Shown here: in pieces, positions 5,168-44,500 of the stretch
Layout: each line of letters begins with the position of its first letter
How positions within the stretch are numbered: position 1 is the stretch's first letter
Source: Owenia fusiformis
Taxonomy: Eukaryota
Length of the DNA: 64,000 nucleotides
Reading direction: 5' to 3'
Assembly: GCA_903813345.2 (NCBI GenBank)
Contig: CAIIXF020000001.1
Span: 20,212,001-20,276,000 of the forward strand
Notes under the pieces: generated by a model
What the model was told of the DNA's origin: nothing
The model's input: only the letters and a program-made list of their open reading frames with translations
The model's database searches: none
Made by a program: the position numbers and the translations under genes

Positions 5168-5563
5168 ATGTCTCGACAAGTTATTCCCCCTACCCGCTCT
5201 CCTGTATCTTCACCCCAACAGACTATTAACCTACTGCAGAAACGCCTTTATTCTGCTGAGGAAGATGCCATGCATTTAGTGGGGACACTACAACAAATGG
5301 GGTTCAGGACTAATCAGTCTGCAGTACAAGGGGATGGCCAAGAAGTGCTATCACCATATCAACCAAGGATAGTTGAAAATGAAGTCTTAAAGAAAAATTA
5401 TGAGTCGCTGGTTTCAAGAGTTTGCAGGACAGAAAGTGTGATACAAACTTTAAAAATGAATCTAGCTGCAGTTCAGGCAGAGCGGGATCTAGGTCAAAGA
5501 AAGAATTATGAAGCTAGTGAAAAATTGGCTTTAGCATCTGATGCATATCAGACAGAAATTCAG
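5168..5563 (+). CDS. CCDC150: CCDC150 coding exon 1
   Basis: Acceptor at 5153, ATG at 5168, MSRQVIPP...TEIQ, donor GTAAGT. Confidence 0.88.
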
Positions 5564-8500
5564 GTAAGTTTTGGTGCAGTTATGTATGATGATGTATGCA
5601 TAATTGTACTGTGGAGTAGAGTCATCATTGAATAACATGAAGATTTATTTAGTATTTGAAGAAAAAATATAAACACTTGCCTTCATGTTTTTAAAACGAG
5701 AAAGTTCATAAATGTTTGCCTCTCCCCATAACACCTGCTTTCCCCACTTAGTTTGAGAGAACAAATGAAAGGACCACAGTGCAATTATGAAAAATTAAAT
5801 ACAATAAGATGGATGAAATAAATTTACATACTGTTTAGACCTTTGACTATATAATGTTTCCCAAATAGGTACAGAATTCTTATTTTCCAAATTTGACCAA
5901 ATGCCAGTTTCTCATTTTAAGTGGGTGCAAATGGGGTTTCAGGTTGATGCAAGCCTCTACGATATCTCAATTAGGTGCAGTGGACAGTTCTTGGCAGATC
6001 ACTGTTTACATTCAATATATTCTAATTACATGATTAAAGTCAGTCAATACATGAATCTTTTCAGAATTTGACACGTGAACTTGTAAAATCTCGGAAGGAA
6101 TGTAAAGAAGCACAAGAAGTCAGGAATAAATGCCAGGATGATGTTAGACGATTAAAAGAGGCATTGGAAATATCATCAACAGCCAAGGTAGAAACATTGT
6201 TTTGTTTTTTGATATGTATGCACTATTAGAGAAAAACTTATATCCCAAAGAATGTGTCTTTTTTAAAAAAAATTATTAAAACTAAGTCAGCCCTCTATTT
6301 TTCCAACACGTAATTGTAATTACTCAAACATGATATGTCACCTTCCAATCTACTGTATAAGTATGAGTTTATTTTGGTTCTCTATTTTGATCGATTTGAT
6401 GTCCATAGTATAACAAAGACTTTTAGTTAAACTACATGTACAATGCTTCTTTTCATTGATTTCCTTTATGATAACATTTCATGATTTCATTCATGTATGC
6501 ACATTGTCATGTGATATTATTTTTTGTAGGTTGAATATTCTGCAGCTGCTGAGGACTTGAAATATGGCAAAAATAAACTTGTTCGTAGAGTAGCTGAATT
6601 AAAGGAGGAGTTATCAAGAGAAATGGGTCTACGTGCAAGTCTAGAGGAATCACATAATACATTAATGACCAGAGTACATGAAATGGAAGACATTGTTGAA
6701 GCAGAAAGAAATGAGGTAAAAACTGTATATAAAGTCTTTTAAGCCTTTATAGCAATGATAAACACTTCTATTCACAACCACTGTCAGTAGTACAGAGTAC
6801 TAGAATGTGCATGATGTACAGGGTGTCCAAGAAGTAACGTCAATCACTCTGGCATTTTGTCATTTATGCTTCAAATGTCATGAAACTTAGTCAGAATGTT
6901 CCTTGTACATTTATAAATATAAATATGAAGTATGGAGTTACTAGCATTTGATTGGCCGGTTTTATGGTTACCATAGTAACACAAGTGCATGGACCCCGGG
7001 GCAGCTCTGCAATCGGTAAGATCTTTACACTAGCTTTGAAGTGTACATCTTTTATTTATAATATGACCACAAATATAATGTTTTCCACTACACATCATGT
7101 ATTCATAATATAGCTGTTGCTGGCGTTATATCAGTGTTATATTAAAGTTTATCGAATGTTACTCTACATAATCACCACCAAGTTCCACACATCTCTGGTG
7201 TCTTCTTACCCGCTCCAAGAAAACTCTATTGAAACCACCAGAGCTCATTTCTGCAAGGGATGACAGAACAGAGCTCTTAAGTTCCTCATTTGAAGAGAAA
7301 GACTGTCCAGCAAGTTTAGCCTTCAGTGCCCCATAAAGATAGAAGTCACTAGGGGCCAAATCAGGCGAATATGGAGCTTGTTCAAGTATGGGGTATTCCT
7401 AGTATCTCAATTACTTCCATGGTGTTCCTGGCCTTGTGAATGGGGGCATTGTCCCAGTGCAGTGAAAGGCACAATCCAGCCAGAAAACATATTATGATGT
7501 CATAAAGTACTCCAAAGAAGTGTTACCATGGTAACTCCCAATAAACAATAAAACCGTTAAGATTTGAAAAAGTCCCAAGACATTGCATTTCATTTTTGCC
7601 AAAGGTTTTACCTTATAATAACCTGATTTACATAATATTTACCAGGTACATTCTGAACTGCCCCGGGGTCCATGCACTTGTGTTACTATGGCAACCATGA
7701 AATTGGCCAATCAAATGCCAGTCACTCCATACTTCGTATTTATATGTATAAATGTACAAGGAACATTTTGACCAAGTTTCATGACATTTGAAGCATAAAT
7801 GACAAAATGCCAGGGTCATTGACGTTACTTCTTGGACACCCTGTATGTAACTTAATTGTATCCCTATTAAGTTCTTTGTCCATTTGACCAATCCTTGAAC
7901 ACACTGCAGAGTTGGCATGGTACATCAATAATTCCATACCTTCTGGGGTTCTAGAGAGATAGTGTGCTGGAAAATGAATTGTATCTTGGGAGCAGAATAT
8001 TGGCTGAATTTATCCCGCTATTTTTGAGGGCTGGGACAAACAAGAATATCTTTCAAGTCTTTCATTTTAATGAACTTATGTATTTCCTATATATCTCAAA
8101 ATGTCAGATACTTATGGTATGGGGCATTTCAGTTATGAATGGGCAGTCCCAGGATTTATCCCACAGGAAAATGGATATCAATCCTCCCAGTACATTAATC
8201 TTGCTCCACACAAAATTGTCATTCTAAAAACATTAGAGGGTAACTCTTTAACAGAGCTTTTTGAAGTATTGTTAAGATGATAGACAACATCATCTTGGCT
8301 TTAATGTTCATCATTCTGAAATGTTTATTATATTCCCCTTGGTGAAGCCTGCTTTTAACATGAATGTATAGAGAGTGGGAAAGGACTTATCTAATCTAAA
8401 TGTGCAGTTGTTTGGGTTTAGTTAGTGTGTACTTCACAAATAACCACTTGTATATATACTTGCACTGTTTTGAATATTATTTCCGAGAGCAGAATATACC

Positions 8501-11500
8501 AATTTCTGTAATTCCCCAAATCTCCCATCTTTAATTACTGTACAGACTACAATAAACATCAATTTTACTAACTTTTCACAAATGAATTGGTTATGATTGG
8601 CGAGTGTGTTAGAAAATAATCAGATTGCAATCTGTTTGCTACTTTGACAAAATACATAATAATTGTGTGATTGATTTTTGAACTTATCATAGACATCTTG
8701 ATGAAACAATCTATTCGAAACATAATTTTTTACACCAGATGTTATTTATTAATTCGCAGAATCAGAGTCATTGATTGCGTATATTCTTTTGTGGACTTTT
8801 ATGATGTCATGACATGACATATTAGTCTGTACTAAATCATATCTATTTAACTACACTTATACTACACTACACCATGCTTCAACATGGTACGCGTAGAGTA
8901 ACATGTAAAATAGAACACCATAAAATGAACAATAAATATATTTATATTGGAGGTCGGAGGAAGTCTAAGTTGTCACTCGTTATATTTTGTGACTGGAATT
9001 CCCTACAAAATTTCCCTGCTCATCACCCTAATTTTCTGATTTTTGGAGAACATGTTTGAGAAACAATAAAAGGTGAGAGAGGCAAATTAGAAGGTGCTGT
9101 CAAATTACTTTAGAAGTTGATTTTGAACTGTGAAGTGCAGACATGACTTCAAAGTCACCAAAAAGTTGAGTGACATTTTACATTTCCTCTAACCTTACAG
9201 TGTGAAGCATTCAGAAGATTAAACTTTTTATGAGTCAATTTGTTTACAAGTGTTGAAAATAAACTTTCCCACACAGACAATAACATTATTACTGCAATAT
9301 CAGGATAATTTTTGTCAATATTGACCCTATTGTTCCATTTATCTTGAAAGCGCATGTTATAATGTGCAATGCATTTTTTGTATCAAGATCCTGTTTTTCA
9401 TTTGTTTATTAAACTATCAAAATATTCTAATTTTTATAATGTTTGCCAAAAACATTTTAATAGTTTTAAGTCTTCTGAATCATTTCACATTCCTTTGTTT
9501 TAAAACTTTGAATGGGTTGTGAATGATATATAAAATACTATTAAACCATGCATGATGTCAAGTTATGGTATTTTAATATTCAAATGAAGTTTTTCTGCAC
9601 TGAATGAAAGGAAAAACATCAATATATCAATATTTGCACTAGTCAGCTCATAATGCAATTACCTATCTATATTATTCTACACATTTTTATTTAAATTCAT
9701 ACATGTATACAATGAAACGGTTATCAGAGCAACACTGAGTATGCATAGATATTAGAAACTGTTGGATACTTGTTAATTAGATGATTGATTTTTAGCTTTT
9801 TAAAAGTCATACTGACTTCAACTGACTCAAAGGAGAGCAGAGAATTAAGGCAGTCTTATTAGGACTCTTATGTATTCAGAATTTTGATTCTTCACTAAAA
9901 CAGGATTGTTGTTACATTGTCGTTTTCAAGGTAACACAGACGCCTTTCTGAAACAGACAAAGGACTAGTCTCGGTTTAGAGAAAGGAGCTCATCAGTCTA
10001 CACAACGTTACGCCTGCTTTGGACAATTTTGATATTTTTATATATTGTAGATTTAAGTGTCCTCTTTTGAATATCCATAATTTAATTTGGCTGTTATTTC
10101 TATATTTTTCATAAAATAATTATGAGCCCAGTAGACTGTTCTCCACACCGAGACTTGTCTTTTTCATTTTAGGTAAAGAGTCTCTCGTCTGACTGCACTG
10201 CACTCCGACGTGAAGCTGCCAAGTGGCAAGATGCAGAACAGAAGCAACAGGTTCTCAGGGCACAACAAGAGGAACAACTCACTGCTTTTTTCAATGAAAA
10301 TGGTAAATACAAAATTGTAAACATGTTTGATAAATAGTGTTGTTAGTTCTACATAAATGGTCTATTTGATATTGCTTTTATGTTTGTGAAACATGAAAAG
10401 TCAATTTGTTTTCATGATATAAGTTTACTATCAACCCAAGTCATGATAATGTGCAATTTTTAATCTCATCATTTACTGTACAAGTCAGTATTGCCCTTGC
10501 ACTATAGGCAACTAGAGAGTATAATTGAAATATGTAAACTGTAAAGTGAATTATTTTAAGTCATATTGCAAGAACTATAAATATTTGTCTCATGTGTAAT
10601 TATAGATATTGTTATCTCCGCATAGATAGATATCACATTGTTTGTGAAATTAGAATGATAGCTAATTTTGAATAAAAACTGCTACCTGCAGCCTAAAACA
10701 TCATGAACTTAACCGATTTACCCCAGTTTATTTGATGCAACAAAAGAAGACAGATTTTACTGGGTATTTATATTTTATTGATTGCCAGATGTATGGTATT
10801 ATTTATTACACTCATATTAAATGTACCAACTCGTTTATTTATAGCAAAGCAGAAAAAAATAATTGAAGAAATGGAGGAAGACAAGAAATGTGTCAAAACT
10901 GAGTTTGGCAAGATGAAAGTTCAGTATAAAGGACTTAATGCCCAACTTGAACAGATGAAGAAATTCACAGAGGAGAAACATGTAAGGGCTTAGCTTTACT
11001 TCAATTTAATTCAATTTATTTAAGTAAAGTAAACATTTAAATAACAATAATAACAATATATACAGAATATCACATCATTTTGAGTGATATCATTTTTATC
11101 GCCGAGTTGATATCAAATATCAACACGAGTGAGCGAAGCGAATGAGTGTTGATATTTGATATCTACGAGGCGATAAAATGATATCACTAGAAATTATGTG
11201 ATATTGGGTTTATCCCATGATTACGATCACCTTGTGATATAGTTCGTCATAAATACAATTTTTTTAATCGTTATTTAGCAGCCTTCTGATCAAATTATAT
11301 ACAGAATCGTAATTTAATACACCAACAATGAAACTTAAAGAGAATAAATTAACGGACCTATTTTCTCAAAAGAGAATAAATTATCTGACCTAATTTCCAA
11401 CAATATTGTGGCGCGAAATGCAAATGTGATATCAGACGGATATGCATGAGATAAACGATATCACACGCATATGAGTTTGATAAACGATTTTCTGGAAAAT

Positions 11501-14500
11501 ATCACACGGATTTCAGTGATATCAGAAATATCAATAGCTGTTATTGTACAGATAACACATTAATCGTGGGATAAACTGTATTATAGAATTATAGAAATTA
11601 AATGGGGCATATACATTTCAGTTCATAGTTCTCATATATATTTGACATATCCAGCCCCAGGGATAGTTTGCATGATACAAGATCTATTGAAGAATATATC
11701 TGTATTGTTTTATCTGTCTAAATACTCCATTCTGACTGCAAAGAGGAACTTCATAATTTTCCTGTCTACTTGCTGTTGGCCAATTTGGGAGTACTGTACA
11801 GGTATACCTTCTGTATTAATGATGTCTGACTTTAAAAAGGTTATTTGCCTCTATGGTCGATTCCAACTATGTCCCTGTCTCTCCAAATCTGCAGTTTGCA
11901 TGTTAATGCCTTGTTTACACATACAATCATCTTGTAGAGCACCCAAGGGCAACTTGAACATGAGAACAAGCAGCTACATGAGGCCCTGAGGACTGCAGCT
12001 GAGGAGAATGCTAAACTCATTGCCAACTATGAGACACAACTTGTGGTACATATTAGATAATCTAGAAAACATGTTCCTTTGAAGTATTCAATATTAAATA
12101 TGTGATATGATAAAACTGTTCTCTACTTTTCTCTAAAATAACACCAATTTTGGGTATTTTCGAGCATTAATAAGAAAAAGTTAGAAGTTTGTCAGAAAGT
12201 GTCAGTTGTATCACTTTACTTTCAAAAGCCTGTTGTAAAAGCATGTTTGGCATACAGTGCACTTCTTACCTCTTTTTATATGCAGGCTGCAAAGGAGAAA
12301 GTCACAACAAGTAACCAACAGCAGGAGACAGTTGAGATACTAAAACAGGAACTTATAAGAGAAAGCAAGGAAAAGGCACATTTCCAGCAACTATGGTAAG
12401 TTAGAATCATGGTCTATCCATCTATTGTGCACACTAAGCAGTTATTATGTTGTAAACTCTGAAAATTATAAAGTTGTCTGAAACTCTTTGAGCATCCTTT
12501 GTTCATTTACTACAGTAGTATATACTGTAAGACAAGAAGGAAAAATGAAAAATTGTATAACAAACTTGTCAAAATACACCAATCTGTATACTATCAGTAC
12601 ATATTGTTTTGTTTTATGTTGTTTTTAGTGAAAAACTTCAAGGGGAGTTGAACGAGATCAATGGAGAACATGTGTCTGTAGAACGAGAAAGCAAAGAGAC
12701 AATAGATGAATTAAACCATGAAATACATGACCTAAAACAAAAACTTAAGTTTTTGGAGGAAGAGAAACAACAAGCATTTAAAGAGAAAGAAACACTTTTG
12801 GATGAAGTAAGTTCAGCAGAATTTAAGAGACATTTATTTAGTTCTGTTCATTGAAATACATTACAATTTAAGAAATTAATTGGGTAAGTAAACATTGTTA
12901 AAAATGCAGTAGATCTTTATAAGATGTTGGAAAAGGACTGGCATTGTAATTCTGTATTTTGATTGTTTATAAATAAATGCCATCAAAATCAAAAAAATGA
13001 AAAAGGACAGCAATGACTTAAACATCAACCAATTTAAAAAGCAAAATGCATATCTTACCAAATTAATTACTGACTCAAAGAACAACTATCAAGATAAACT
13101 TTGTAATAACTTGGATGAAGAAGCAGCAAATGGCCTAAACTACTGGACAATTATAAAGAAACTTATAGGAACCAAGTTTTCAACAGGCATTCCTCTTCTT
13201 GAGATAAATGATAAAATTATTGATGATGACCTTGGAAAAGCAAATGCTTTTTTAAATAAGTTCATGACTAAGTTCCACCATAATATAATTGATAAGTCAT
13301 TGCCGCCCTGTCCTATGAAAACAAATGAATCTTTGACTTACATAAATATTTCTCGAAAAAATATAAATGATAACTTACGGAACCTTAATTCATCTAAAAA
13401 AGGTGGAGAAGATAATATCACTAACAAAATGTTGAAACTTGTGGCTGACTCTATCGATGTTGAACTAGTTAAATTATTTACTATTTTCTTGGAGACAAAT
13501 ACATTTCCTGATTGCTGGAAACTGGGTATAATTGTTCCTATATATAAGAATAAAAATTCAAAAACAGACCCATCCAACTACAGACCAATCTGCCTCCTCA
13601 ATAATCTCTCAAAGCTTTTTGAACGAATAATTTATACAGCAATTTTTGACCATGTTTCCTCGAAGAACCTCATTTATGAAAATCAGTCCGGGTTCTTACC
13701 AGGCCATAATACACAGAAGCAACTATTTTCTATTGTTAATATGTTAGCCGATAATTTTGACTCTAACCTAGCAACCCGTGGAATATTTTTAGACGTGGAA
13801 GGTGCATTTGACGCAGTCCCACATTTTTTGTTACTCCATAAGATGAAATCTTATGGATTAGGCAACAATATTATAGAGTTATTGACCTCATATCTAACAG
13901 ATAGGAAATTAAAAGTAAGGATCAATGATACTTATTCAGACATTTCATGTAATGCTGAAACTGGTGCAAATATTCCTCAAAATCTTCAAAATCGAGACTC
14001 TAGATCCTATGAAATAAATAGTGGGGTTCCCCAAGGATCAATTCTTGGCCCCCTATTATTTTTGTTATATATTAATGACTTAGCAGACTCAGTTCATAAT
14101 TGTAAACTTTTCTTATATGCTGATGATAGTTCGATCTTCTTGACAGTACCAAAGAATGAATCAGTTGAAACAACAAATCAAAAAATTCAATCAGATATCA
14201 ATGAAATGGCTAATTGGTCCACTAAATGGAAACTCAAATTTAAGGCATCTAAGAGTAGGGGGGTTATCTTTCAATCTAAACACACACGAAAAGTTAAGAA
14301 ACAAATTCCAGTAACAATGAATAATGAGCAAATACCTCTTGTAAATAGCCATAAACATTTAGGCATCATTTTAGACAAACACCTTAGCTTTGAAGAACAC
14401 ATTAACTCAGTGATTACTAGGTGTAATAAAATGTTAAATCCATTAAAAGCACTCAAATTTTCAGTAAGATCAAAACACTTACAGACAATTTACATGGCAT

Positions 14501-17500
14501 TCATTCTCCCACATCTCGAATATGGCAATATTATTTTTGACAGCGCAAATCTAAACCTCTTAGCAAGTTTAGATAGAGTCCAATATAGAGCGGGTCTTAT
14601 TGTAAGTGGTTGCATCCAAGGGTCAAACTCTGAGAAGGTGATGGCATGTCTTGGATGGAGATCCTTATCCAATCGAAGAAAAGAAAAAAAACTAGTTTTT
14701 TTTTTTAACATCTTTCATATTTATTGTAAGCACAAGTCATTTAGATACAATTACAAGGGGCAAAGCGCTGTAAGCATTAGATGTCCCCTTATATAAATAA
14801 ACAATAAAGTACAATATTCATTTTAACCTGGATGTCACCTGTAAATGGTAGAATGCCTTGCAGTGAAACAAAAGATAGGAGGGCTGCTGATATCCTGGGG
14901 GAGGGGTAGTATGTTGAAAAATGGAAACAGGTCATAGGCAGGAAAATATTTAGATTCTGGTTGTGTTTTCAATGAGATAATTCGCAACCAGTGAAAATAG
15001 ATTATCCATCTCTAATTGGGTTAATGATGGATCCCCAAAAAGAAAAAAGTGAATTTTGTCTTGCTGAGTTCTGAAATTAGTTAATAAGTCCCCATATATC
15101 CCTAAAGTATCTGTTATTAGTTTATTTCTTTGTTGTTCTTTCAGAGGGCATTTGAATAAGAAGTGGGGAAAAGTTTCAGGGGAACCACATAAACAATTTG
15201 ATGACTCAACTGAGCTCCAATTGTGGGCTTTGAGCTGGGCTTTTAAAATTAAATCTACCCTGGCTCTATTTAGATAAAGTTCTTGTTGACGAGTTAATTT
15301 TAAACAAATTGTTGAAACAACACCAGGGAACAAATTTAATTTAAGTGTTCTTTTAAAAGATGCAATAGTTGGCAAGAGCTTTTGTTCCAAGGGAACAGAT
15401 CCTGGATCATTCCATAGGTTCATCATTTTGTATATTGGAGACTTATGTGGATAGTGAATAGGGATAGTGAAATCTCGAGATTTCCTTAACAATCTTGCTT
15501 GAGGGTTTATGAATGGCCTAAATATATCTGAGATATAAATAGGTGTTAAATCATTCACGGCTTTATACATAATTGTTTTGAAGTGGAGGATCCTCCTCTC
15601 AGTTAAGGTGGACCAGTTCAAAATGTTAAGTACTTTGGAAGTGCTGGAGCCTGGGAGAGCACCAGAGACTATTAGACCAGCTTGGTACTGGAGACTGTCA
15701 AGTCTGTTAAGGTCACAAATAGGAGCACAATCGTAAAGGATATCACAATAATCAAATAAGGACTGAATATAAGCTGTATAGAGAATATTTAATTGTTTTG
15801 ATTTTAGTCTACCCTTAAGTGCTTTTAAGGGGTTAAGAGCTGTTTGGATTTTTGCACAGATAGAATTTATATGTGCTGACCCATTTAATTTTTTATCAAA
15901 AATGAAGCCTAGGTGTTTATGAATGTCAGTTTTTTCAATTTGTTTATCATTTAAGGTAACTGGTGGATAGATTGGATTATTTTTCTTAGAAAAGGTCATT
16001 TCTCTGCTCTTTTCTGGTTTAAAATCTAGTTTCCACTGTTTAGACCAGGCTTCGATTTTTTTTAGATCATTTTGAATTTGTATATGAGACTGCGGATTGT
16101 TTGGGGAAGTAGGTACAAAGAGGGAGGTGTCGTCTGCATAAATAAAGCACTCTGAGGTCAGGTTGTCCGGTAAGTCGTTTATATAGAGGAGAAACATCAA
16201 AGGTCCGAGAATACTTCCCTGAGGCACAGAACAGTTTATGTAGTTGCTAGGAGAGGTGTCAGAACATTTGCCATTCACAGTTACTTTGACACTCCTATCA
16301 GTCAAATAAGATTTTAGAAAAACTAATAAGTTTCCTGAAAATCCATACGCTTTCAACTTTTTTAGAAGAAGGTAATGGGGGACACGGTCAAACGCGGCCG
16401 AAATATCCAAAAAAATTGCACGTGTATCATTGCCGTCGCTAAAATTGCGCCAAATTAGGTTTTGGATGGCTAACAGTTGTAACTCATTGCTGTGCCCTTT
16501 CAAAAAACCGGACTGGTATTTATACAATAAGTTATTTTCAATTAAGTGTTAGTACATCTTAGAGTAGACAATTCGTTCTAATATTTTGGAAGTAATACTG
16601 AGAAGAGATATAGGTCTATAATTTCTTATGTCATTCTTATTATTCTTTTTAAATATTGGGCAGATATCCCCTAATTTCCAGTTCTGGGGAAAATTACCTG
16701 TGGTCAAAATTTTATGAAAAAGTAAATTAAGTGGCACAGAAATAGTATTCCTGCATAGCTGGAGCATTTTTATTGTAACTCCATCTGGACCATTTGCTTT
16801 TGAGGGGTCAAGATCCTTAATTATAGAGATAATTTCCTGTTGGTCAAAGTCAATGTTCTCTAATTTGTTATTGCATCTGTCAGGAAAATGAATATTATTG
16901 TTCAATGCATCTGGTTCTAAGTGATACATATTAGAGAAATATTTTTGAAATTCAGTAGCTTTCTCCTGACTGGTCAAACAGGTAATTCCAGTTAAAGGGT
17001 TTTCTATGGTAGGAATAGGCGAGCTAAATTTTTTACCTAAAAACTTTTTTATAAGTTGCCAAAATTTGTCACTTGCATGTGTTTCTCCATTTAGACTTTC
17101 TATTTGATCTGATGTAAATTTTGCTTTGGTTTCTAAAATAAGGTTCTTGACAGCTTCAGTCTGATTCTTATATGCTGTATAATGTTCAGGAAGATTGCTT
17201 TTCTTGAATTTAACAAAGAGTTTTTTCTTTTTCTGAATCGCATGAGATATACTCTCATTTAACCAAGGTCTATCATTCGCTTTAATTCTTTTCATTTTGT
17301 GAGGGATAAGCTTTTTAAAGATGGTAAGAATTGTATCAGTAAATTGATCATTTAAAGTGTTCATATCATGGTTTTGAGTAAAAAAATTAGCCCAGTTTAT
17401 TTTTTCAATTTCAAGGTTCAAAGCATCTTTATTTGCAGTATCATATTTCCAAATAAGTTTAAATTGATCTTCCTCTCTATTTAATAGTACATCGAGTTGA

Positions 17501-20500
17501 GTAAAAATTGAACAATGGTCTGATGAGCCTATAGGTTCAATTACAGTCGAAGAATTTATAAGACCTGGGACATTAGTGACTGTGAGATCAATGCAAGTAG
17601 CAGATGTTGATGTGATTCTTGTTGGTTCTTTTATTAACTGGTCAAAATCATTATCAAAAAATATATCATTTAAAATTTTTCCGTTTCTATCTTCATCCCC
17701 ATTGAGAAACCACTGTTTACATTTAGCGTTGAAGTCACCATTCAAAATGATTCCATCTGCATTTCGTGATTTTGCCTGTTTTATGTTCATTGTCAAAAGT
17801 TTCATAAATTCATCTCTCTCAATTACTGACTGTGAGGGTGAGCGATAAAAAACTCCATACAAAAAGGTTTTATGTTTAATTCTCAGTTCGGCCCACAGGG
17901 AGTAATTTGTATTCAAGTCGGGTCTTTCGTTACATAAAATGTTGTTGTTTATATAGATCAAAAGTCCTCGATTATTTTGATTGTGTAATGGATTATGAAA
18001 TCCATTCAGCAAGAAATTATCTTTAATTGATATAGTGGTCAAATTTCCAGTCTCACAAAGTCCCACAATTGATACATTCATTTCCTTAACTAGGTCATTC
18101 AGGGATTCAAATCGAGTACCCGCATCGGCTCCAATACTATTTATATTGGAGAATAAAATGTTTAAGTTACCTTTATATGGGACTGGCCCTGGGTGAGGAT
18201 GTACATCATTTGATAATGTAAGCTTGAGCTGATTGATATTAGGTTGCAGATAAGTGCCGCTTAATCCAGGAACACTTAAAAATATCAAAGTAATGCATAT
18301 TAAGGCTAGCAAAAACCTTGGGTTAATTTTCCTGTGACATAGTGAGTATATTCTTAGGACTAGAAGCAGTGGAATAAGCAGATACATGGATGCTATATTT
18401 AAAACTGTCATTCCAATTGTAACGGTAAAATATATCAGTTTAATTGTATCAAAGAGCTTTATCGATAACAGAGCGATAAGCGAAAATATCATCATAGCTA
18501 TGATACAAGGCAAAGAAAATGAAAGCACATAAGATTTGTTTATATTACTAATCCCTGTACTGAACATCTTGATGTTGTATAGGTTGAACCTGCCTATAGC
18601 TGACCTCCATTGGACTAAGCTAACCCCCATCATAAAGATATTTCCCTCCCAGGATAGCAGCAGTAATTCCTATAAGTAAACAGAGTGTTTCAGTCATGAT
18701 CGATATTAGAAGGCAAAGGATTCAGGAGGGAATGGAGAAATCAAGCATACATATAATTTAATTATGGCATCAAGACATAAATACATGTGTATACAAGTTG
18801 CAGTGAGATATAAGTGTTTTTGTATGTGGTTCCTCATTGAAATATGTTATGTGATCATAGCATATACGAGTTCCATGCTAAAGATTGTCACCTTCGGGGC
18901 TACAGTTTAGCTAGTGCTGGCAGTTGAAGCCGGGGGAACTCTCTGTTGTCTGGAACGGTGGATTTGAGATTGAACTATAGGGAGCTTCTCCATGTCAGAA
19001 ATAATTCCTGCAATGTCATCCACAACATTGAAAGCACGTATAGCACCATTCGCAGTTTTCCCCAGAATCTTACCATGATCGGACCAATGGTTGACTATGG
19101 ATGGGTGCAGTTCTAATTGTTTTAGTAGAGCACGGTTCATTGGGCTAAGGTCCTCGTATATCCGTATTGGGGTACCCTTGAGAAGGGATCGGTTTTTGAG
19201 CAATGAATCTCTAACGTGCCTGGATTTGAGACGAACAATTATGGATCTGGGTTTATCAGAGCTAGGTGAGGGGTTGCCAGGTACCCTGTGAGCAATCTCG
19301 ATATCAGCTGCGGTGAGCGAGTCACTAAGTTTAGTGGAACTTAGCTCATTGCAGAGTGCAGAAACACAATGCTGGAGATTCTTGGAATCAGACTTTTCGT
19401 CGGCAGTTTCCTTAATACCGTGTATTCTGATCAAGTCCTTGCGAGAGTACTGAGAGTTATGATTGGATTGCAAGATAACTTGGTTCAATTTTATAGACAG
19501 GTCTTCATGAGCCTTTTTGAGCTTCACGTTTTCTGATATCAGGCTTTCAATCTGGCTGTCATATTTATTCTCGAGCTTGATCAAAGGTTTAATCACACGC
19601 TCATCTAGGACTTTATTGACAAATGATTCCAGATTATTTTCAAATCTCTGCTCGAATTTTTTGAAAAGTTTTTCCATACCTGACATTGAGACAACGTCAA
19701 TATTATCCTCCTCGGCACTTGCGTAGGGGCTGCCCGTATTGGGAATGTTCTCAGGGTCATGAATACTACGCCCAGAATTTGATTTTCCGCGTTTGGTCGG
19801 CTGTTCTTGTTCTTCAACAGACATTGTCGATTCATTTGGGACTGCTGAAAATGTCATATCCCTAACGACGCCATCTTGGAAAATTTTAGGTGTCGACGTG
19901 GCCACTTTAGGCATGAAGTTTATAATACTTGGTTGCGTTGACATGATTATCTGAAGTCCTATCAGTTCCGTAGGTATTTATGTTCAATCACACAGTATAA
20001 TTTGCAGGTTAGAATAGTAGGAGATGCCTAGAAACGTATAAACATTCTCCGGCTCCAATTTCCTAAACTAACATTGTTGGTGACGTCACTTCCACCTTCA
20101 AAACTAGTTTTTATGTTTGACTTTGTAAATAATTATAAGATGCCTTCATATGTTTCAAATGTTTTTGAACAGTATAAGAATCAGGTAACCCACCAAAGAC
20201 TTCGTCGTAGCAATGATTTTAAGATCCCATTCAAAGCATCTGCTAAACTTAGAAAGTTTACAGCTTTATCCAGTATTAAATTATGGGATAATTTACCTGA
20301 TGAACTGAAACAAGCACACTCACGCAACTCATTTAAGTATAAAATTAGAACATTTTTGAATGGGAAAAAGAAAGAATTCACAACCCCAAGATTAAACCTA
20401 TCCAGAGATAAAGAAATTGTCTTAAATAAAACGAGATGTGATCTCATTTTTAGGCAGCATCTTTTTACACATAACTTCAAAAATATTCCAAATGCCAAAT

Positions 20501-23500
20501 GTAAATGTGGTCACTCTACTGAATCAACCAAACACCTATTGCTCCATTGCCCTCTTTTTAACACTCAAAGACTCAATTTTCACAGAGAACTAGGGGGACT
20601 GCCATCCTTTAATTTAAACTCTTTTAATAATAGAAAACAGGAGGACAGGGTAGACTTTTTACTTTTTGCAGATCCTTCTCTTGACACAATTACAAATAAA
20701 AAGGCTATTGAATTAACAGCCGAGTTTTTACACTCTATTGTCAAGGAAGTTAAACAGTCCAATATTCATTAATTTATACATATATCTCTGACCTGTCTTC
20801 ATGTTTTCAAGATTATTTTTATGTTCATAAATATGTTCTATATCTATCATTTTTACATTATGACCTATTTTAACTTATATTGTAACTACTTCAACAGGGC
20901 CAATAATGCTTCGGGGTAGGCCTGTATCTGTTTGTATGATGTATTATGAAATAAAGGAAATATAAAAATTAAAAAAAAAAAAAAAAATGCCATCAAAATA
21001 ATTGATTTGATTCAATATTTAACTGAAGACAGAATAGAAAATGCATATTGTGAATTTGTTTTGAATAACCTACAATTGTAATATACAAATGAAATGTCTT
21101 GAATTGAAGATCAACCAAGCTGTGGATAGTATGACTGAGGAAAGAGCCAAGTTACAGGCTGAGACTGAAGTTAAGCAGCTTGAACTAGATACATTACAGG
21201 AAGCAAAATTTCAACTTGAGGAAGAGAATGCTAGATTGCTAGAGAGAATGGGACAAGTGGAACAAACACAGGTATTTATCTTCAGTGTGATCAAAATATG
21301 ATTTTCCACCAAAAGTTTCATTTATTTATATTATTTACACAAACCTGCGTCCATTGATTTTATTCTCATAATATCTGCTCCATAGAAAGTTAACCCCTCT
21401 TAGATATGAGAATAATAACTCTTTTATCATTGCCTGTTATAGAACTCACAACAGCAGATTGAGAAGACAATGTCAGATATCCTAGAACAGAAGAATAAGC
21501 TGGCTTATGATAAAGGAAAGCTCCAGTCCAGAGTGGAGCAGCTGGAGTCCCAGCTCCAGTCTCTTGCAACCACCCACACTAACTCTGTTCAGCAGAGAAA
21601 CACATTCAACACTTTGCAGGGAAAGTACACAAAGGTACCTAGAATAGATCAGTAAATAGGATTTGTATGCTGTTTGGATGGCACCTGACACTAGTCATTT
21701 CCAAGAGAGTTATTTTATCACACTTTGAAAATGTGATATTTAGGAGTCCTCATTTTGTGCTGCTGGGTGTGCATGCATTCTTCTGGGTAGTTGGGCTTTT
21801 ACCAAATAAATCTTGTAATCAAAATTCCAGGAAAACCCCTGAATCATTCAACTTGAAATTTTTACAGACGCAAGAGCAGTCTAGTGCCAACGTCTGATTA
21901 GGTTTTGGGCATGCTGGGTTAATAGCATAGTGGCCATTTTGCTTGTCAAAGTGTGATATTTATGACTGTGTCTTTATTAGAAAGTATTTGCAGTAAAATC
22001 AATTAAGAGGCTTTGTGGATGAAATCTCCCATGTTTGCTTATACGAGGGGTGATCAATAAGTAATGGACGCCTTTTTACACAGATGCTTTTTATAGACCA
22101 ATCCCTTCGATTTTCTTACCAGTGATTCATCATTCAATTATCTATCAACTCTGAAGATTTGAAGACAAAATATATAATACATGTTGATATATCCTCATTT
22201 CTGTGAAGGAGGTACGGGTACCCCGGGACCGACATTTACGTCACATATTCTGAAGATATTTTAGCGTGTTTAACATGCAATGCAGTTGAATGCAGGCTGA
22301 ACAAAACAAACCATTATGGTCATGAATTACCCCATTTTGTTATGCCATAGTTGATTTTGAATATTTTATCATCACTATGTGGTATTCATGCCACATTTAT
22401 TCCACAGGACCCTCTAAATAGGTTCCATCAAGTGCTACATGTACACAATTCCTCATCCTCTTAACTCAAGATTGTAAGACAAGGCTGAATCCATTCTCTG
22501 ACATGGTAGCAAGATACAGTTTCATGGGTTGTTTTATTTAACCAATGTTAATAAACCTGCGTCTGTATATGTCTCTAACCTCTCTTTCTCTATGGAAATA
22601 AGTGGTACATAGAAATAACAAGTCACATGTGAGCAGATGTGGACAATAAAGTGCATTGGCCAAGGGCTCAATTTTGAGGTCCAGGGATATTGTTTTCTGA
22701 ACATTTTGAGATCTATGGGCAGGTGCATTGACCATACGGAGTAGGGTTTTCCCTTCTCTCACCACCCCTTTCTTCCACAATGTTTTCTCAAATTGACCTG
22801 CAAACCCCTTCCATACAACACTCTGACATTACAATACTTTCTGTTTATGTGTTACCAGTCAGCAAAAAAATTCAACCAATACAACACTTGTTGCATATAA
22901 AAAGTTCAAATCTAACTCAAATGTACCAAACTTGGCAAAAACTGAATATGAGACGTAAATGTCGGTCCCGGGGTACCTGTACCTCCTTCACGGAAATAAG
23001 GATATATCAACATGTATTATATATTTTGTCTTCAAATCTTCAGAATTGATAGATAAGTGAATGATGTGTCACTGGTAGGAAAATCAAAGGGATTGGTCAA
23101 TAAAAAGTATCTGTGTAAAAAAGCGTCCATTACTTATTGATCACCCCTCGTATATCAGTTTTTTATGTTAACTGAAATCATTGATCTTTATAAAAATACC
23201 AAACCAAGATCTTGGAGACAATCTACGTCTAAAATGCTGATTTGACAGTTGTTTAACATTACAGAGTCAAAGTGATTATAATGCAGCCAATATTAAAATA
23301 CAACGTTTGGAAAGTCAGCTGAAACAACTAAGTGCAATTGGTGAACGTAAGGAACAGGACTTTAGCATGGCCCTACAGTCCCGAGATGAAGCCATCCGTG
23401 AAGTAAACAAATTGCGAGATGTTGTCGAGTCAACAGATGGACGAGAAAAGCAAAAGGTATGTACATCATTGTAGCTTGTCAAAATATGCAAATTTTTCTC

Positions 23501-26500: not shown

Positions 26501-29500
26501 TTCCTGAAAAGGAAAGGCAAGCTATATATTTCCTTAACTGATCTAGACTACCGGAGCGTTTCCAATTCACTGTGTTAACCAGATCGGAGCGTTTCTTGAA
26601 TATGAGAATGTCATCATTTTTAAGACTGGATTTTCGGTCATCAAATCACTATTAGGATAATGTATGGTGCGTTGAAGCATTGGAATTTGACTAAAATATA
26701 CGTTGGTGCTCTAATCTTGGCTCAACTAATTACATGTATCGACAAAAGGGGTTTTGACCGGTAGAATGACAAATACGTTTTTGAATTTTGATAACTATAC
26801 TGCTTCGTACAGCTCTTCCTAATTGCTTCAAACGTCAACAGCCAGCCACGTACAACATGAATATCACACCCATCGAATGGTATACTCGAAATATGTAACT
26901 CATACCTCTTATTTCCATTATTGGGGAACTTGTCAGACGGCTCATCATTCCCGCCAGACAGTTTTCCTACTCCGGAGCGTTTCTTTGTTTAATTTCAGTA
27001 ATGAAACGCTCCGTCGTGCATGTAGGAGCGTTTGGGTTATACACCGTGGTAAAGGGGAACAACTGATTTGAAATTTGAATGCAGTAAATAAGCAATCTGA
27101 CTGGTCGAGATTATGGGTGAATTCTAAATACATTCAAGAAATAAATGTATTTTTAAAAAAAACTCCTAGATGATGGTTAAAGGGTTAAAACATTGAAAGG
27201 CGGAACTGAACTGGAAACTGTGTATTGGGGAGAAAACTTCAGGTACATGACCATGCAAAGGATGTCTGAAGCGTTGGTTGCTTTATCTGGGCTGTTAAAT
27301 ACTTTGGGGTACAGTTTTTGAGACACTCTATTTGATAAATGAATGATAAACATCTGCTTAAGAGTTCCAAATATGGTTTTTCAGATAACTCCTCTTAGGG
27401 AAGCTTTAGAGACATGCAAATCTGATAATATAAAGATGGCCAACTCTTTAGATGGTGTGATGCATTCTAACAGGCAACTACAGGTCAAACTTCACAAACT
27501 TGAAGATGAATTAGCAAAGAAAACTTATCAATTGGAAGATACAATAAGTGCAAGGTAATGTATGATGTATGATATTTTTCTTTCTTGGCCATTTTTGTCA
27601 AATCTCAGATATCTCATAGTATTAAATGTTTGAAATTTATTATTTCTTTATATTTCCATGTTTTCTGACAACTTGTTAGCTACAATTATTGCTAAGGATA
27701 TAAATATTAGCTAGCTATTCAGGAGACATCTAACTTGAAATTTTACCATAATTTTTTAAAATAAAATAGTCTAAAAATCCTCAATTTTGTATTTCAGAAA
27801 AAATGAACAAGACACAATGAAACAGGAGATTTGTAGTTATGAAGAAAGGATGACTGCCTTAAAACAACAACTAAATAAAGACAGAGATAAATCACTCAAG
27901 AAAACTAACAAAGAAGTTGTTGAGGTATAGTATTGAAATCCTGTTGCTTGAACTTATTTTTATTATGTCACCAAAAGTGGCGACATATTGTTATAAAGTT
28001 CCCAACTTTTTTGTGAACTGAGTTCGGCGGTTGGTGTTCAGTGTTTGGAGTTTTGTGTCTAACAAATGGTGACATTTTGCATGTTAATGTCTTGTTTAAT
28101 ATTCTTATGATAGGTTGATCCTTGGAATTTTGTTAATGTGAATGATCTTGTAGATGTCTGGAGATCTTCCAACCCTGATAAAAAGAGTTACACTTGGTCA
28201 AGGAATAATCCCTTTATTGCACGAAGAATTGACTACATTTTTGTCAATAACAGTCTCAGTAACAACATTATTGAATCTGATATTATACCATGTTCAAATA
28301 CTGATCATATGGGTACTACAGTCTCTATAAAAGAGCAAAACTCGGACAGAGGTACAGGATTTTGGAAGCTAAACAATGAAATTTTAAAAAACCAAGAATA
28401 TGTATCAATGATAAACAAACTAATTGATGACACTGTTAACTCATATAAAAATGTAGTCAACGATCAAATTTTATGGGATACATGTAAATGTGTTATTAGA
28501 GATGCAAGTATAAGATTTAGCAAAACTCGTGCTTCTAGAGAAAAATGTGGGTTAAAACAGATTGAAATAGAGCTAAAATTGGCACAAGATAAACTAGTAA
28601 ATGAACAAAATGCGCAAAATATTAATAGAGTTCAACAGTTACAAGTAAAATATGATATTCAGACAAATAAGAAAGCTAAAGGGGCACAATTAAGATCAAA
28701 AGTTAAATGGGTAGAACGAGGTGAACTGAATACAAACTATTTCTTATCATTAGAGAAAAGTCATGGAAAAATGAAAGCCATTGAAGTGTTAGAGGATGAT
28801 GGGGTATATACAAGCTCTATGAGTGAAGTTATGGAAAAACTGTTTAAATATTACAGTGAAATGTATAAGGAAAATGGGGATATTATTTATACGTTAGATG
28901 ATTTTGCGATAGACCTTGAAATGCCATCTTTAGATGATAATGACAAATTAAAATGTGAAGGTTTGATTAATGAACATGAATGTGCACAAGCTATTAAACA
29001 AATGAAATCTGACAGTAGTCCAGGGATTGATGGATTAACATCTGCCTTCTACAAAATGTTTTGGACGAAAGTAAAAAGCTTAGTAGTTAATTCATTAAAT
29101 TATGGGTTTCAGACAGGGCAACTTTCTAGCAGTCAAAGGAAAGGAATAATAGTATTAATACTTAAAGGCAAAAATATTCCAAGAAATCGTTTAAAATCAT
29201 TCAGGCCTATATCATTAACTTGTTGTGACTATAAAATAGGGGCAACTGTGTTGGCCAACAGACTGCAGACTGTAATCAAAAAATTGGTTGAAAGTGACCA
29301 GAATGCATATTTGAAGGAAAGGGGTATACATCTAAACTTAAGATTGATAGATGACATAATGAATTACGTTTATAATGATGACATTGAAGGTATTATGGTC
29401 GCTCTTGACTATTCACGGGCGTTTGATTCTATTTCTAAGAAGTATGTTTATAAAGTTGTTGAAAAATTCAATTTTGGTCCTGAATTTCAAAGATGGATAG

Positions 29501-41500: not shown

Positions 41501-44500
41501 TCCTTCAGAAGAATTATATGACAAGGATCCTTGATAAAATCATACTAACTGGGATGTTTTATCAGAAGAGTTTGTAAAGTTAATCATTTCCAAGTTTATT
41601 GTTTTTTGTCACCATCACAAGTGGTGACATATTGTTATGGTTAGTCCCATGGTAAGGCCCATAGCTCATAATAAGCTAAAGCCCAACATACACCAATGGG
41701 GCACGATGGGATCTCCATATGCTTAACATTGCATGGGACCTTGTGGGCTTAATGTCCCATCTTGCCCCATCACATCCCAACCGTTTCCGGTCAGTATGAC
41801 CTGTGATAACTTGAAGTTTCGAAGCACTCGATGTTATTCTGGATTTTAAACGACAAATCGATGGGATATTGTGTATTGAAGTTGGCGACAGAAACAGCAA
41901 GGTAATGCATATGATATATGAGAATCCGAGTGCTATATAATGTAAACTAAATAGTCAAAATTATTAGTATAAAGTAGAAAGCTACCGGTAAGATTTGGAT
42001 CAATTTTTTCATTCAATCCAGTAAGCATTTGTGATTTAACTGATACAGTTTTCAGACACTGCATGTACTCGGTTTTTCCCATATCATTATAACATTGGTA
42101 ATATAGCCTAGCTTTCAATAGTGTAACACGGTGTTTTTGTTAGCGTTCAAGGAGCTTAGCGGGCACCCAAAGGGGAGATTGAAAAGTGTATTTGTAAATA
42201 GTCTATTGTATTTGTGTAAATGTATTTTTAGAGCATTAATTTGTATTTTGTACGAGTTAGTGTGGGGGGGGGGAGTTATTGTTGATGAACGTAGTACCCT
42301 TTGGGAACCCGCGTAACCTGTACATAGGAGTTACCTAAATTTGGAGATCCTGAAAGCTGTTCGTTACTTCTTATTTTCGTGTGACTGTATTGTTTATAAA
42401 TGAATATCTTATTATATGAGGAACTCAACAAATTACTAATATCTAGGCACTGTTCCTCATATGTTTTAGGAATTTCTGCCTTTCCAGGCAAACCAGTATG
42501 TTGGCAAAATGCATATATGTACTTGTAATCAGACTGATGTATTGGTTTGTGTTTGATTGTGTTTGTGTTTGTTTTGCTTGCTCATCCAAGTCACATGTAT
42601 CTAATTGTACACGTACATGTAGCTCATACTTTTCAAATGAACTTATCAAGAGTCCCTATAGCCCTGCAAGATCAGGAATAGGGTAATATGCCCTGTTGTA
42701 CTGAATCATGGAGAAGAGCAGTTGGACTTTTTAATTGGCACCACATATTAAGCTTGGAAAACATATTGGAACCGGGCTCTCAATTGAAATGTGAATACTC
42801 TACTGAATTTTACCAGCTGGCTGTTATTTTAGTTGCATTTTTAACTCTCTTACTGATTGTAGGAGGGTTACATGTATCTAGTTGTAAATTGCAAATTCTG
42901 CCCTTTGTCTTGGTATTTGCATTTCACATAGTCTACATTTGCATTATTTTATATACCATGTTGTCTATAATAAGATATTTGGTGAGTCTCTATTCACATA
43001 CAATACCAATTATACTTAATATTTCATTACTAACTGTGGTCATTTCATGTATACCTGGATCTACATTACTTATACATAATCCAAGCCACATGTATTACTT
43101 ATTGCTCCTATTATGTGGGGATATTGAAAGTAATCCAGGCCCATCAGATGACTTAAAAATTTTGTTCAGCAACATTAACAGTGTGAAGGCAGACTCACTA
43201 AATCGCTTAAATTTCCTGAAAAATTATGCAGCAAAGGAGGAGTTTCATATTATAGCCCTATGCGAATCGGGTAATATCACACCTGAAGATCTAAAATCAA
43301 AGAATTTTGACATAAGTAACTATGGCGCACCAAAATTTTGCTCAAACTCTGGCAGAGGCTTGATTTTATGGTCCCATGATTCTGTTGAAGTAAAAATTTT
43401 GGATCAATTTAGATCAGCTGACCTGGTCAACTGCTGGATTGAAGTTAAACTAAACTTCAAAACATTTCTATATGGATTTTTTTACAGATCACCATCAATG
43501 AATGCTAATGATACCAGGCGGTACTTCTCTGATTTCAAAGATAATATATCTAATGTGGCAATACATCCGAATAATGGGATATTTATTAATGGGGATTTTA
43601 ACGCAAGAAATGATGTATGGTATGAACATGATCATAACAATTTAGCTGGAACTGAATTATTTAGTACATTAACTGAACTTGATCTTTTGCAACTCGTCTC
43701 TGAACCAACCAGAGTCAGGCAGAACTCAAAGACATGCATTGATTTACTCATAACCAATTCCGAACATGCGATTTCTCACAGAGTTGATCCCCCGATTGGA
43801 AACTCTGACCATTGTGCAATTGTGTCAACCATAAGATCGAGGATCCCAAGAGAGCCATCTATTAAAAAGACCATGTGGAACTTCAGTAATGCTGATCTAC
43901 AGCAACTTAATGCCAATATTACTAACTCTGATTGGAGTTTCATATTTGAAGACTCTGTCAATAGTGCAACCAATAGATTTATTGATAATTTTATGTCCAT
44001 AATCAAGACAAGTATTCCTTGCAAAATTTTTTCTACACGTTATGATGATCAACCATGGTTTAATAGCTCAATTAAAAAGGAAATCTATAAACGTAATAAA
44101 CTTCATCATAAATTCAAAGCAACAGATAACATAGAATTTTATGAAAAATATGTGACCCAAAATAGAAAAGTAAATCTATTGATTAGCGAGGCCAAAGCAA
44201 ACCACGAAATCAAACTCAGAGAAAAGATTGATAATGTTTCAAAAAACTCTACAGAATATTGGACTTTAATCAAAACTCTTTTGGGTAAAAATCATACAAG
44301 CTCATTTCCTGTTCTTATTGATCCTTTGACAAATATCTCAGCATGCAGCAGCTTTGAAAAGGCTGAAGCTTTTCTAAAATATTTTGCAAGTAAAAACTGT
44401 GTTGATATTAATAATACCAATGAACCACCACTTGAACTTAGAACAAATACAATATTGCCAGAAATCAGAACTTCTCCACAGGAGGTATTTGAGCTGTTCT

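Follow-up and report, generated by a model that had tools for sequence, protein, structure and literature searches.

A selected ORF2 leader with a start motif, three predicted membrane helices and a 2A-like peptide in LINE families of Owenia fusiformis

ORF2 of LINE B, a non-LTR retrotransposon in the window (the whole stretch of 64,000 nucleotides of Owenia fusiformis DNA that was analysed), starts with a leader of 150 codons that ends in a 2A-like peptide. We found leaders of this type in 39 LINE families of the same genome, and they are a selected module under purifying selection, not a product of AT-rich chance. The features of LINE B and the corresponding leader of LINE C are:

14701..20099, minus strand: whole LINE B insertion with poly(A) tail, inserted into the older LINE A
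18907..19944, minus strand: ORF1, 345 aa, weakly L1-ORF1p-like (coiled coil and RRM; weak matches)
18634..18906, minus strand: ORF1-ORF2 spacer, 273 nt, shortened in the B copy
18184..18633, minus strand: ORF2 leader, 150 codons, with start motif, three hydrophobic helices and 2A
18583..18609, minus strand: W-R-x-x-[IV]-G-x-F-N motif, its W seven codons past the second Met
18457..18516, minus strand: predicted transmembrane helix 1, residues 40-59, from hydropathy, model and charge
18358..18435, minus strand: predicted transmembrane helix 2, residues 67-92, with a basic loop behind it that is probably cytosolic
18262..18315, minus strand: predicted transmembrane helix 3, residues 107-124, terminating in SVPGL
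18184..18240, minus strand: 2A/StopGo-like peptide, deviating from the common form at K6, N11, H14 and H16
14950..18183, minus strand: APE endonuclease-reverse transcriptase in a single frame (Pfam Exo_endo_phos and RVT_1)
42688..43143, plus strand: corresponding leader of LINE C, with DIESNPG/P, from reading of the frame

The minus-strand frame from 18633 begins MMGVSLVQWRSAIGRFN and reaches DVHPHPG/P at G149/P150, with the APE endonuclease immediately after. Three 19-residue windows of the B leader exceed a Kyte-Doolittle value of 1.6, and an AlphaFold model (pTM 0.51) has helices at residues 40-59, 64-98 and 105-120. Frame reading and hydropathy confirmed the start motif, the three hydrophobic stretches and the 2A-like end at codon 149 that had been noticed in B before. 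LINE C, at 42688 on the plus strand, reads WRRAVGLFN and DIESNPG/P (G151/P152), and the APE-RTs of the LINE B and LINE C families are 38% identical. The two leaders had been described as alike; they share the layout, but not a direct similarity beyond the motif, since the direct B versus C score was reached by 15 of 2000 shuffles with the motif and by 1645 of 2000 without it. BLAST of the two leaders gave 7 identities in 14 positions. With a profile built without B's clade, the B leader minus its 2A scored 48.8 bits, compared with a maximum of 8.8 bits for 1000 shuffles; when the W motif was also removed, the values with a profile of the same type were 18.2 and 11.6 bits. The original prediction had staked its case on recurrence of WRxAxGxFN in other relatives and on a leader similarity above that of shuffled sequence. 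The motif recurs across the 39 LINE families, and the profile score of the B leader lies beyond all 1000 shuffles.

LINE B has the poly(A) tail and target-site duplication of an APE-type non-LTR retrotransposon; the duplication is 13 bp long (14688-14700 and 20100-20112), and the poly(A) is the same as in sibling copies. RNA reads join LINE A sequence directly to 20100, which is the form without B. LINE A itself is 5'-truncated and divided by the B insertion (window 12997-14687 and 20113-20988). By Pfam, APE and then RT lie in one ORF2, which in the B copy stops prematurely at codon 695 (16549-16551), inside the APE-RT frame. The siblings L061 and L101 have open frames of 1239 codons and are 98.8-98.9% identical to B at the DNA level; the B copies are young, and two of them are intact. 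The DVHPHPG core is kept in all nine distinct B copies that span this site (11 loci, with two copies counted twice). We take LINE B to belong probably to the CR1 group (CR1, L2, Crack, Daphne, Kiri), judging from RT and C-terminal motifs. ORF1 of LINE B matched Transposase_22 with E=0.081, under the Pfam cut-off, and the LINE-1 ORF1p chain 2ykp with E=0.011; a Transposase_22-like ORF1 is the type reported for Daphne in the accessible part of PMC13343379. The B spacer is ~820 nt shorter than that of L101. In 13 other families the ORF1-ORF2 spacers measure 0.8-1.6 kb and contain 17-38 ATGs, and several of the 13 have pyrimidine-rich CAG sites 30-70 nt ahead of the ORF2 start. An IRES, splicing or an internal promoter might give access to ORF2 in these families. 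RNA-seq depth over the B leader was 0-3 reads, on both strands, with most reads 95-99% alike; the mapped reads contained no splice joint within B, at a coverage too thin to indicate expression of the copy or access to ORF2. LINEs A and B sit in introns of a spliced, expressed coiled-coil host gene with exons at window 5168-23460 (plus strand; joint 21269-21441). The window also contains a different LINE with an RT and an 862-codon frame, without the start motif (28309-31829, plus strand), and a 582-codon frame of ~25-residue tandem repeats (36122-37870, minus strand).

Queries consisting of the initial 250 residues of B or of C gave at least 150 matches each in the same genome, from which we took 120 loci (60 top matches and 60 hand-picked for long frames and diversity); these sets are biased towards the leader because the queries themselves contained it. 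The motif and the APE start were in one frame at 80 of the 120 loci, a 2A-like site was present at all 80, and the 80 loci grouped into 39 families at 90% identity, with 135-156 residues from W to P19. Within the motif, R is conserved in 39 families, G in 38, W in 37, F in 36 and N in 34. Its arginine codons include both AGR and CGN, and all synonymous codon families occur, which argues against an RNA-level signal. We rejected an RNA-level motif on this codon spread and on the spacers, which have no similarity beyond close families; one spacer match was discarded as an unrelated shared repeat. Pooled over the five closest of 11 family pairs, dN/dS was 0.18 for the motif, 0.29 for the leader core (P 6e-29), 0.08 for the 2A, 0.09 for APE and 0.05 for RT, and in three H14 pairs the 2A had values of 0.04-0.08.

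If the leader were a neutral AT-rich open stretch, retained merely as the start of ORF2, one would not expect these values. Outside the motif the similarity of B and C does not exceed that of shuffles, and AT-rich codons favour hydrophobic residues, so that 25 of 780 shuffled leaders had three hydrophobic windows. However, three windows are present in 31 of the 39 leaders (6 others have two and 2 have four) and in none of 195 other frames, and none of the 780 shuffles left the frame open. The dN/dS of 0.29, a charge bias shared by 39/39 families, and 140 sites for the motif pattern versus 15 control sites also speak against neutrality, which is largely refuted and in our view barely tenable. 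The earlier claim of a selected module rather than AT-rich chance is thus borne out by the 39 families, dN/dS values well below 1 and the spread of synonymous codons.

No Pfam family was common to two of the 39 leaders. The best fold match of the leader (Z 8.0) was a generic three-helix repressor, only generic helix bundles matched, no viral match fell below E 0.2, and a search of the ESM Atlas returned no usable match; none of this shows a new fold. An amphipathic helix or mitochondrial presequence was rejected for the motif, whose hydrophobic moment was 0.25 versus 0.29 in shuffles, on scale values that we assumed. Locus L091 has an APE-RT-related frame of 1202 codons with a different, basic N-terminal extension, and both motif and 2A are absent from its first 330 residues. 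An ATG near the motif is absent in 9 of the 39 families, and 7 of these 9 (L024, L070, L077, L078, L084, L104 and L116) have ATA followed by G at the ORF2 start position; six of the seven fall within or near one H14 clade. Non-AUG initiation of ORF2 is possible in these families. A splice acceptor was rejected for the starts lacking ATG, because the sequence upstream is purine-rich, which would favour ATA starts.

Per residue, Lys and Arg together account for 0.14 ahead of helix 1 and 0.16 in loop 2, against 0.05 in loop 1 and 0.02 past helix 3, and this bias agrees in all 39 families. Among database matches (n=116), the N-side of the last helix was richer in Lys/Arg in 83 and poorer in 10. 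According to the positive-inside rule, charge is related to membrane topology, and the bias therefore predicts a leader with its N-terminus inside, three passes and its C-terminus outside; the call rests on hydropathy, charge and the model with pTM 0.51. In seven of the 39 families, B excluded, the hydrophobicity of the segment before the 2A would suffice for a fourth helix and thus for a reversed topology. With the C-terminus predicted in the ER lumen, an unskipped enzyme would be useless. For fusions of a signal with a 2A, the accessible parts of PMC2978324 and PMC4981915 describe entry of unskipped products into the ER, while skipped products stay cytosolic. A young family with an intact enzyme requires cytosolic ORF2p, and hence some skipping would be expected.

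The B core, DVHPHPGP, does not match the exact class A core D(V/I)ExNPG/P, and the departures from the 2A consensus seen earlier, E to H and N to H, are present. It falls within published functional variants (H14, H16, N11), each active in some context, as is the double-H core (H14 and H16); the combination N11/H14/H16 plus K6 is absent among the published tested peptides. In the accessible text of the respective sources, natural variants with H at p14 and H at p16 gave >95% StopGo (PMC12846837), and class B peptides with H at p16 had reduced, often retained activity (PMC12338488). P2A tolerated only E14H among changes at D12/E14/N16; it also tolerated G11N, was intolerant at L6 and L7, and shared the intolerance at L6 with F2A (bioRxiv 2026.09.24.754024, accessible part). 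The accessible data of a reporter screen (PMC13405545) class two natural GDIHPHPGP peptides as skipping; of the 13 listed HP[NH]PGP rows, 4 skipped, 2 fell off and 7 did neither. Among the first 17 of 39 NDVE rows in that screen none skipped, including one with B's LKLxLSND pattern, while skipping was recorded for three further N11 peptides, whose leucine runs are longer. Odon et al. 2013 (PMC3708506, accessible part) found very low activity for Crack-15_BF (E to H) and near inactivity for many LINE 2As. Since H14 and H16 are published as active, the histidines do not imply a dead 2A.

Over the 39 families, p14 is E in 20, H in 16, K in 2 and Q in 1, p11 is G in 29, N in 8 and F in 2, and p16 is exclusively N (36) or H (3); P17 and G18 are invariant. 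Side variants are P19Q in L078 and L116 (one clade, whose sister L077 retains P19), FD[IV]KPNPGP in L072 and L108, and T at p12 in L201 and L204. In its upstream leucine cluster B keeps L7 and has K at p6, where 29 of 39 families have L; no other family has K6, and the segment before the 2A is less hydrophobic in B than in any of the others. It had been proposed that the 2A state be mapped on an RT tree and that B and C would form a natural cleaved/uncleaved pair. On an APE-RT tree of 36 families and two outgroups (a quick tree with long outgroups; three families were too short and were omitted), p14 switched between E and H repeatedly, with 4 changes, at least 3 of them forced by starred branches. 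The E family L012 falls inside B's clade and H16 occurs on three separate branches, so the mapping did not return a clean pair.

From K6, the weakest hydrophobicity before the 2A and the non-skipping LKLxLSND look-alike, B may be a weak skipper, and its 2A is probably a working but weak variant (N11/H14/H16). The original prediction had gone further, to a degenerate 2A and possibly a permanently membrane-fused APE-RT; on this reading the 2A would be dead and the family would work with a membrane-tethered enzyme facing the cytosol. The four departures (K6, N11, H14, H16), the weakest leucine helix of the 39 families, the similar peptide that did not skip (PMC13405545, accessible data) and the many nearly inactive LINE 2As (PMC3708506, accessible part) would fit such an element. 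However, three helices with the N-terminus inside would leave an unskipped enzyme in the ER lumen, B is without a fourth helix, H14 and H16 can skip in published assays, the PG is invariant, and the 2A has a dN/dS of 0.04-0.08 in H14 pairs. A permanently fused APE-RT is thus not supported, and we consider a tethered enzyme very unlikely.

We also searched a protein database with the leader profile and obtained 827 representatives at E <=0.001. Among the best 150 of the 827, for which the profile itself favours matches with motif and 2A, the motif was followed by a 2A in 117, at a separation of 48-184 residues. A Met preceded the W by 7 or 6 residues in 112 of the 117, and the number of hydrophobic windows ranged from 0 to 4. 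The cargo after the 2A includes APE-RT, death domains, a DEAD helicase, Herpes_teg_N-type deubiquitinase domains, zinc ribbons and, by eye, proteins with an ORF1p-like coiled coil and RRM-like domain; one cluster contains a named sponge death-domain protein. A protein search by indexed words yielded little (1 and 19 matches). Residues 160-312 of the match P0060 form a tandem cassette, in which a 2A is directly followed by a second motif, helices and a 2A, with a Herpes_teg_N-type domain downstream. Of 67 short database matches, 31 had donor-like residues, as would be expected if they ended at introns; this count had no control and was not used as evidence.

A DNA pattern for the motif only, in which the profile was not used, gave 140 sites in this genome (G000) versus 15 control sites. 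The first 30 of the 140 comprised 22 with an in-frame 2A, 4 broken LINE copies (a 2A still nearby in 2) and 4 short chance frames. Two of the 22, and 6 of 20 further sites chosen as unfamiliar, lay outside LINE ORF2. These 8 loci (L221-L225 at G000 C2, C4 and C8; also L203, L206 and L211) have the motif, a hydrophilic spacer of ~30-190 residues, a leucine helix, GG[IV]ExNPGP and a donor-like GT; at one of them the 2A is in another frame. When 10 kb downstream were read for 5 of the 8, four contained DUF294 nucleotidyltransferase and TPR frames, and two had weak OTU matches under the cut-off. Position suggests that the cassette is spliced to OTU/DUF294/TPR frames at these host-type loci, which possibly represent an expanded, immune-like family. 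In a table of 344 proteins selected for their 2A by others (PMC13405545, accessible part), an exact-word search found the start motif in at least 9: two sponge, two coral, two sea-urchin (one an NLR, one with a hydrophilic spacer of ~250 residues) and one cockroach protein, a clam very large GTPase and a tick LINE ORF1p. Their 2As are classed there as skipping (2), fall-off (6) and reduced yield (1), and further motif words had no match in the accessible part of the table. Motif and 2A persist over varied, hydrophilic spacers and so are the constant pair; the three helices appear to be the version of the LINE clade, with spacers of ~30-250 residues across the cassette. Many 2A proteins lack the start motif. 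Among the first 30 of 224 sites for a 2A pattern (control 1), 19 had an in-frame motif, 6 were truncated copies of the three-helix class and 5 belonged to a second LINE class (2A-PHD-APE), which has no start motif and a signal-peptide-like start ahead of an H14 2A. Copies of this class (L126, L128, L140, L142, L144, L167-L170; L154, L159), some near-identical, have DIHPNPGP or DIQVNPGP, a short signal-like leader, PHD and APE-RT.

This analysis itself observed that the leader is conserved, under selection and biased in charge, that motif and 2A are coupled, and that they are spread over different types of cargo. The reading we favour, to which we give about an even chance, is that the leader would be a routing and dosage cassette that keeps skipped cargo cytosolic, while read-through or dropped-off product is lost. 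It would be the LINE-clade form of a portable N-terminal cassette in which a variable spacer separates M-x6-WRxxIGxFN from a leucine helix and a 2A. In these LINEs the spacer would supply three membrane helices, inserted N-in and C-out, which would bring the translating ribosome to the ER. At the 2A the leader would be released, and the ribosome would then make a free, signal-less cytosolic APE-RT or drop off; on read-through the enzyme would trail helix 3 into the ER lumen and be lost. From this choice between skipping and luminal loss we infer that the cassette would set the amount of active enzyme, and perhaps the site of RNP formation. The second LINE class, which likewise pairs a signal-peptide-like start with an H14 2A, favours such routing, and eukaryotic 2A-like peptides frequently lower protein yield (PMC13405545, accessible part). 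For the start motif itself, the likeliest role is that of a signal for routing or for binding a putative partner factor, and it would have to be N-terminal. In host cassettes whose hydrophilic spacers are long, the 2A helix is the only membrane helix, so ER routing cannot be the sole context of the motif.

Alternatively, the motif could act in cis on translation (on initiation past a long ATG-rich spacer, on early elongation, or on restart versus drop-off at the 2A), and the membrane helices could be a lineage-specific extra. Its place 7 or 6 residues from Met in 112/117 matches, its coupling to the 2A across hydrophilic spacers, the 0.8-1.6 kb spacers with 17-38 ATGs, the 9/39 families without an ATG near the motif (ATA in 7 of 9) and the one case of a motif seven residues after a 2A-made proline start, in P0060, are consistent with action in cis. 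Nevertheless, the use of all synonymous codon families leaves no RNA-level signal, the motif is 48-184 or more residues back at the moment of skipping, far beyond the exit tunnel, and the helices themselves are under selection, so that we consider this unlikely. The released three-helix leader could instead be a membrane protein with a job of its own for the element, such as forming a pore, loading vesicles, transfer from cell to cell or soma to germline, or blocking host defence. Helix number, length and charge pattern are maintained over 39 families with APE-RTs down to 38% identity, viral 2As free separate proteins (PMC3708506, accessible part), and sORF2, a small transposon membrane protein of Drosophila LTR elements, is a precedent (PMC11952523, accessible part). 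Against such a role, the drift of the leader core is three to six times that of the enzyme, its helices lack conserved polar residues, database versions have 0-4 helices, and an N-in/C-out leader has hardly any ectodomain; we regard it as quite unlikely.

Parts of this system are already known, namely a 2A at the start of ORF2, 2A signals on sea-urchin NLRs, and 2As before ORF1p and death domains. In the accessible parts of Odon et al. 2013 (PMC3708506) and Luke et al. 2013 (PMC3894237), CR1-group-like LINEs have a 2A at the N-terminus of ORF2p directly before APE, as here, the E-to-H and N-to-H variants were already noted (Crack-15_BF, L1Tc), and down-regulation of ORF2p was proposed for the 2A. 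Their 2As lie 40-80 residues from the start compared with ~150 here, and they are tied to loss of ORF1, whereas ORF1-like sequence is upstream in at least 15 of our 39 families. In a word search neither paper contains "membrane" or "hydrophobic", and the W motif was not found in their accessible text. The 2A-like signal sequences of sea-urchin NLRs (Roulston et al. 2016, PMC4981915, accessible part), which split the product between cytosol and exocytic pathway, resemble the proposed leader; there, however, the 26-residue N-terminal 2A is itself the signal, whereas in B a separate motif and three helices precede a 2A that ends at residue 149, so that the two are alike at most in their working. 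A polyphyletic origin of such 2As is called probable in the same source. A bioRxiv 2026 survey (PMC13405545, accessible part) reports 2As before LINE ORF2p, ORF1p, death-domain and ankyrin proteins, with skipping or reduced yield, and interprets their spread as likely repeated independent acquisitions, in contrast to the shared cassette considered here; its accessible text does not mention the start motif, although at least 9 of its 344 tabled proteins carry it. With sORF2, the MDG1-group LTR retrotransposons (PMC11952523, accessible part) also encode a small membrane protein, as would be the case for the putative leader protein, but sORF2 is a separate, FAST-fusogen-like ORF of capsid-forming LTR elements, and no likeness to the leader was seen apart from hydrophobicity. 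In the open article text that our literature search covered, neither the start motif nor a LINE ORF2 with a membrane leader is described, although figures, theses, Repbase Reports, paywalled papers or supplements on bioRxiv may contain such a description; spellings of the motif matched a single unrelated paper.

The origin of cellular 2As is called probably multiple or unanswerable in the accessible literature. Taken jointly, we see an evenly balanced case for reading many invertebrate cellular and transposon 2As as copies of one ancient portable first-exon cassette. The cassette would be older than the sponge-bilaterian split and would have been swapped among LINE ORF2, LINE ORF1, other mobile elements and fast-evolving immune-like genes, and its start motif would bind a putative conserved factor of the host by which the read-through product is routed or destroyed. 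A motif of nine residues that keeps its distance to the start and accompanies a 2A on very different cargoes in six animal phyla can mark common descent and gives mutagenesis a defined target. It also allows a common origin of many invertebrate 2As to be tested. With their E/H switches, the 39 LINE families are a natural panel for the tuning of StopGo. The shared motif suggests that transposons and host immune-like genes limit a risky protein by the same device.
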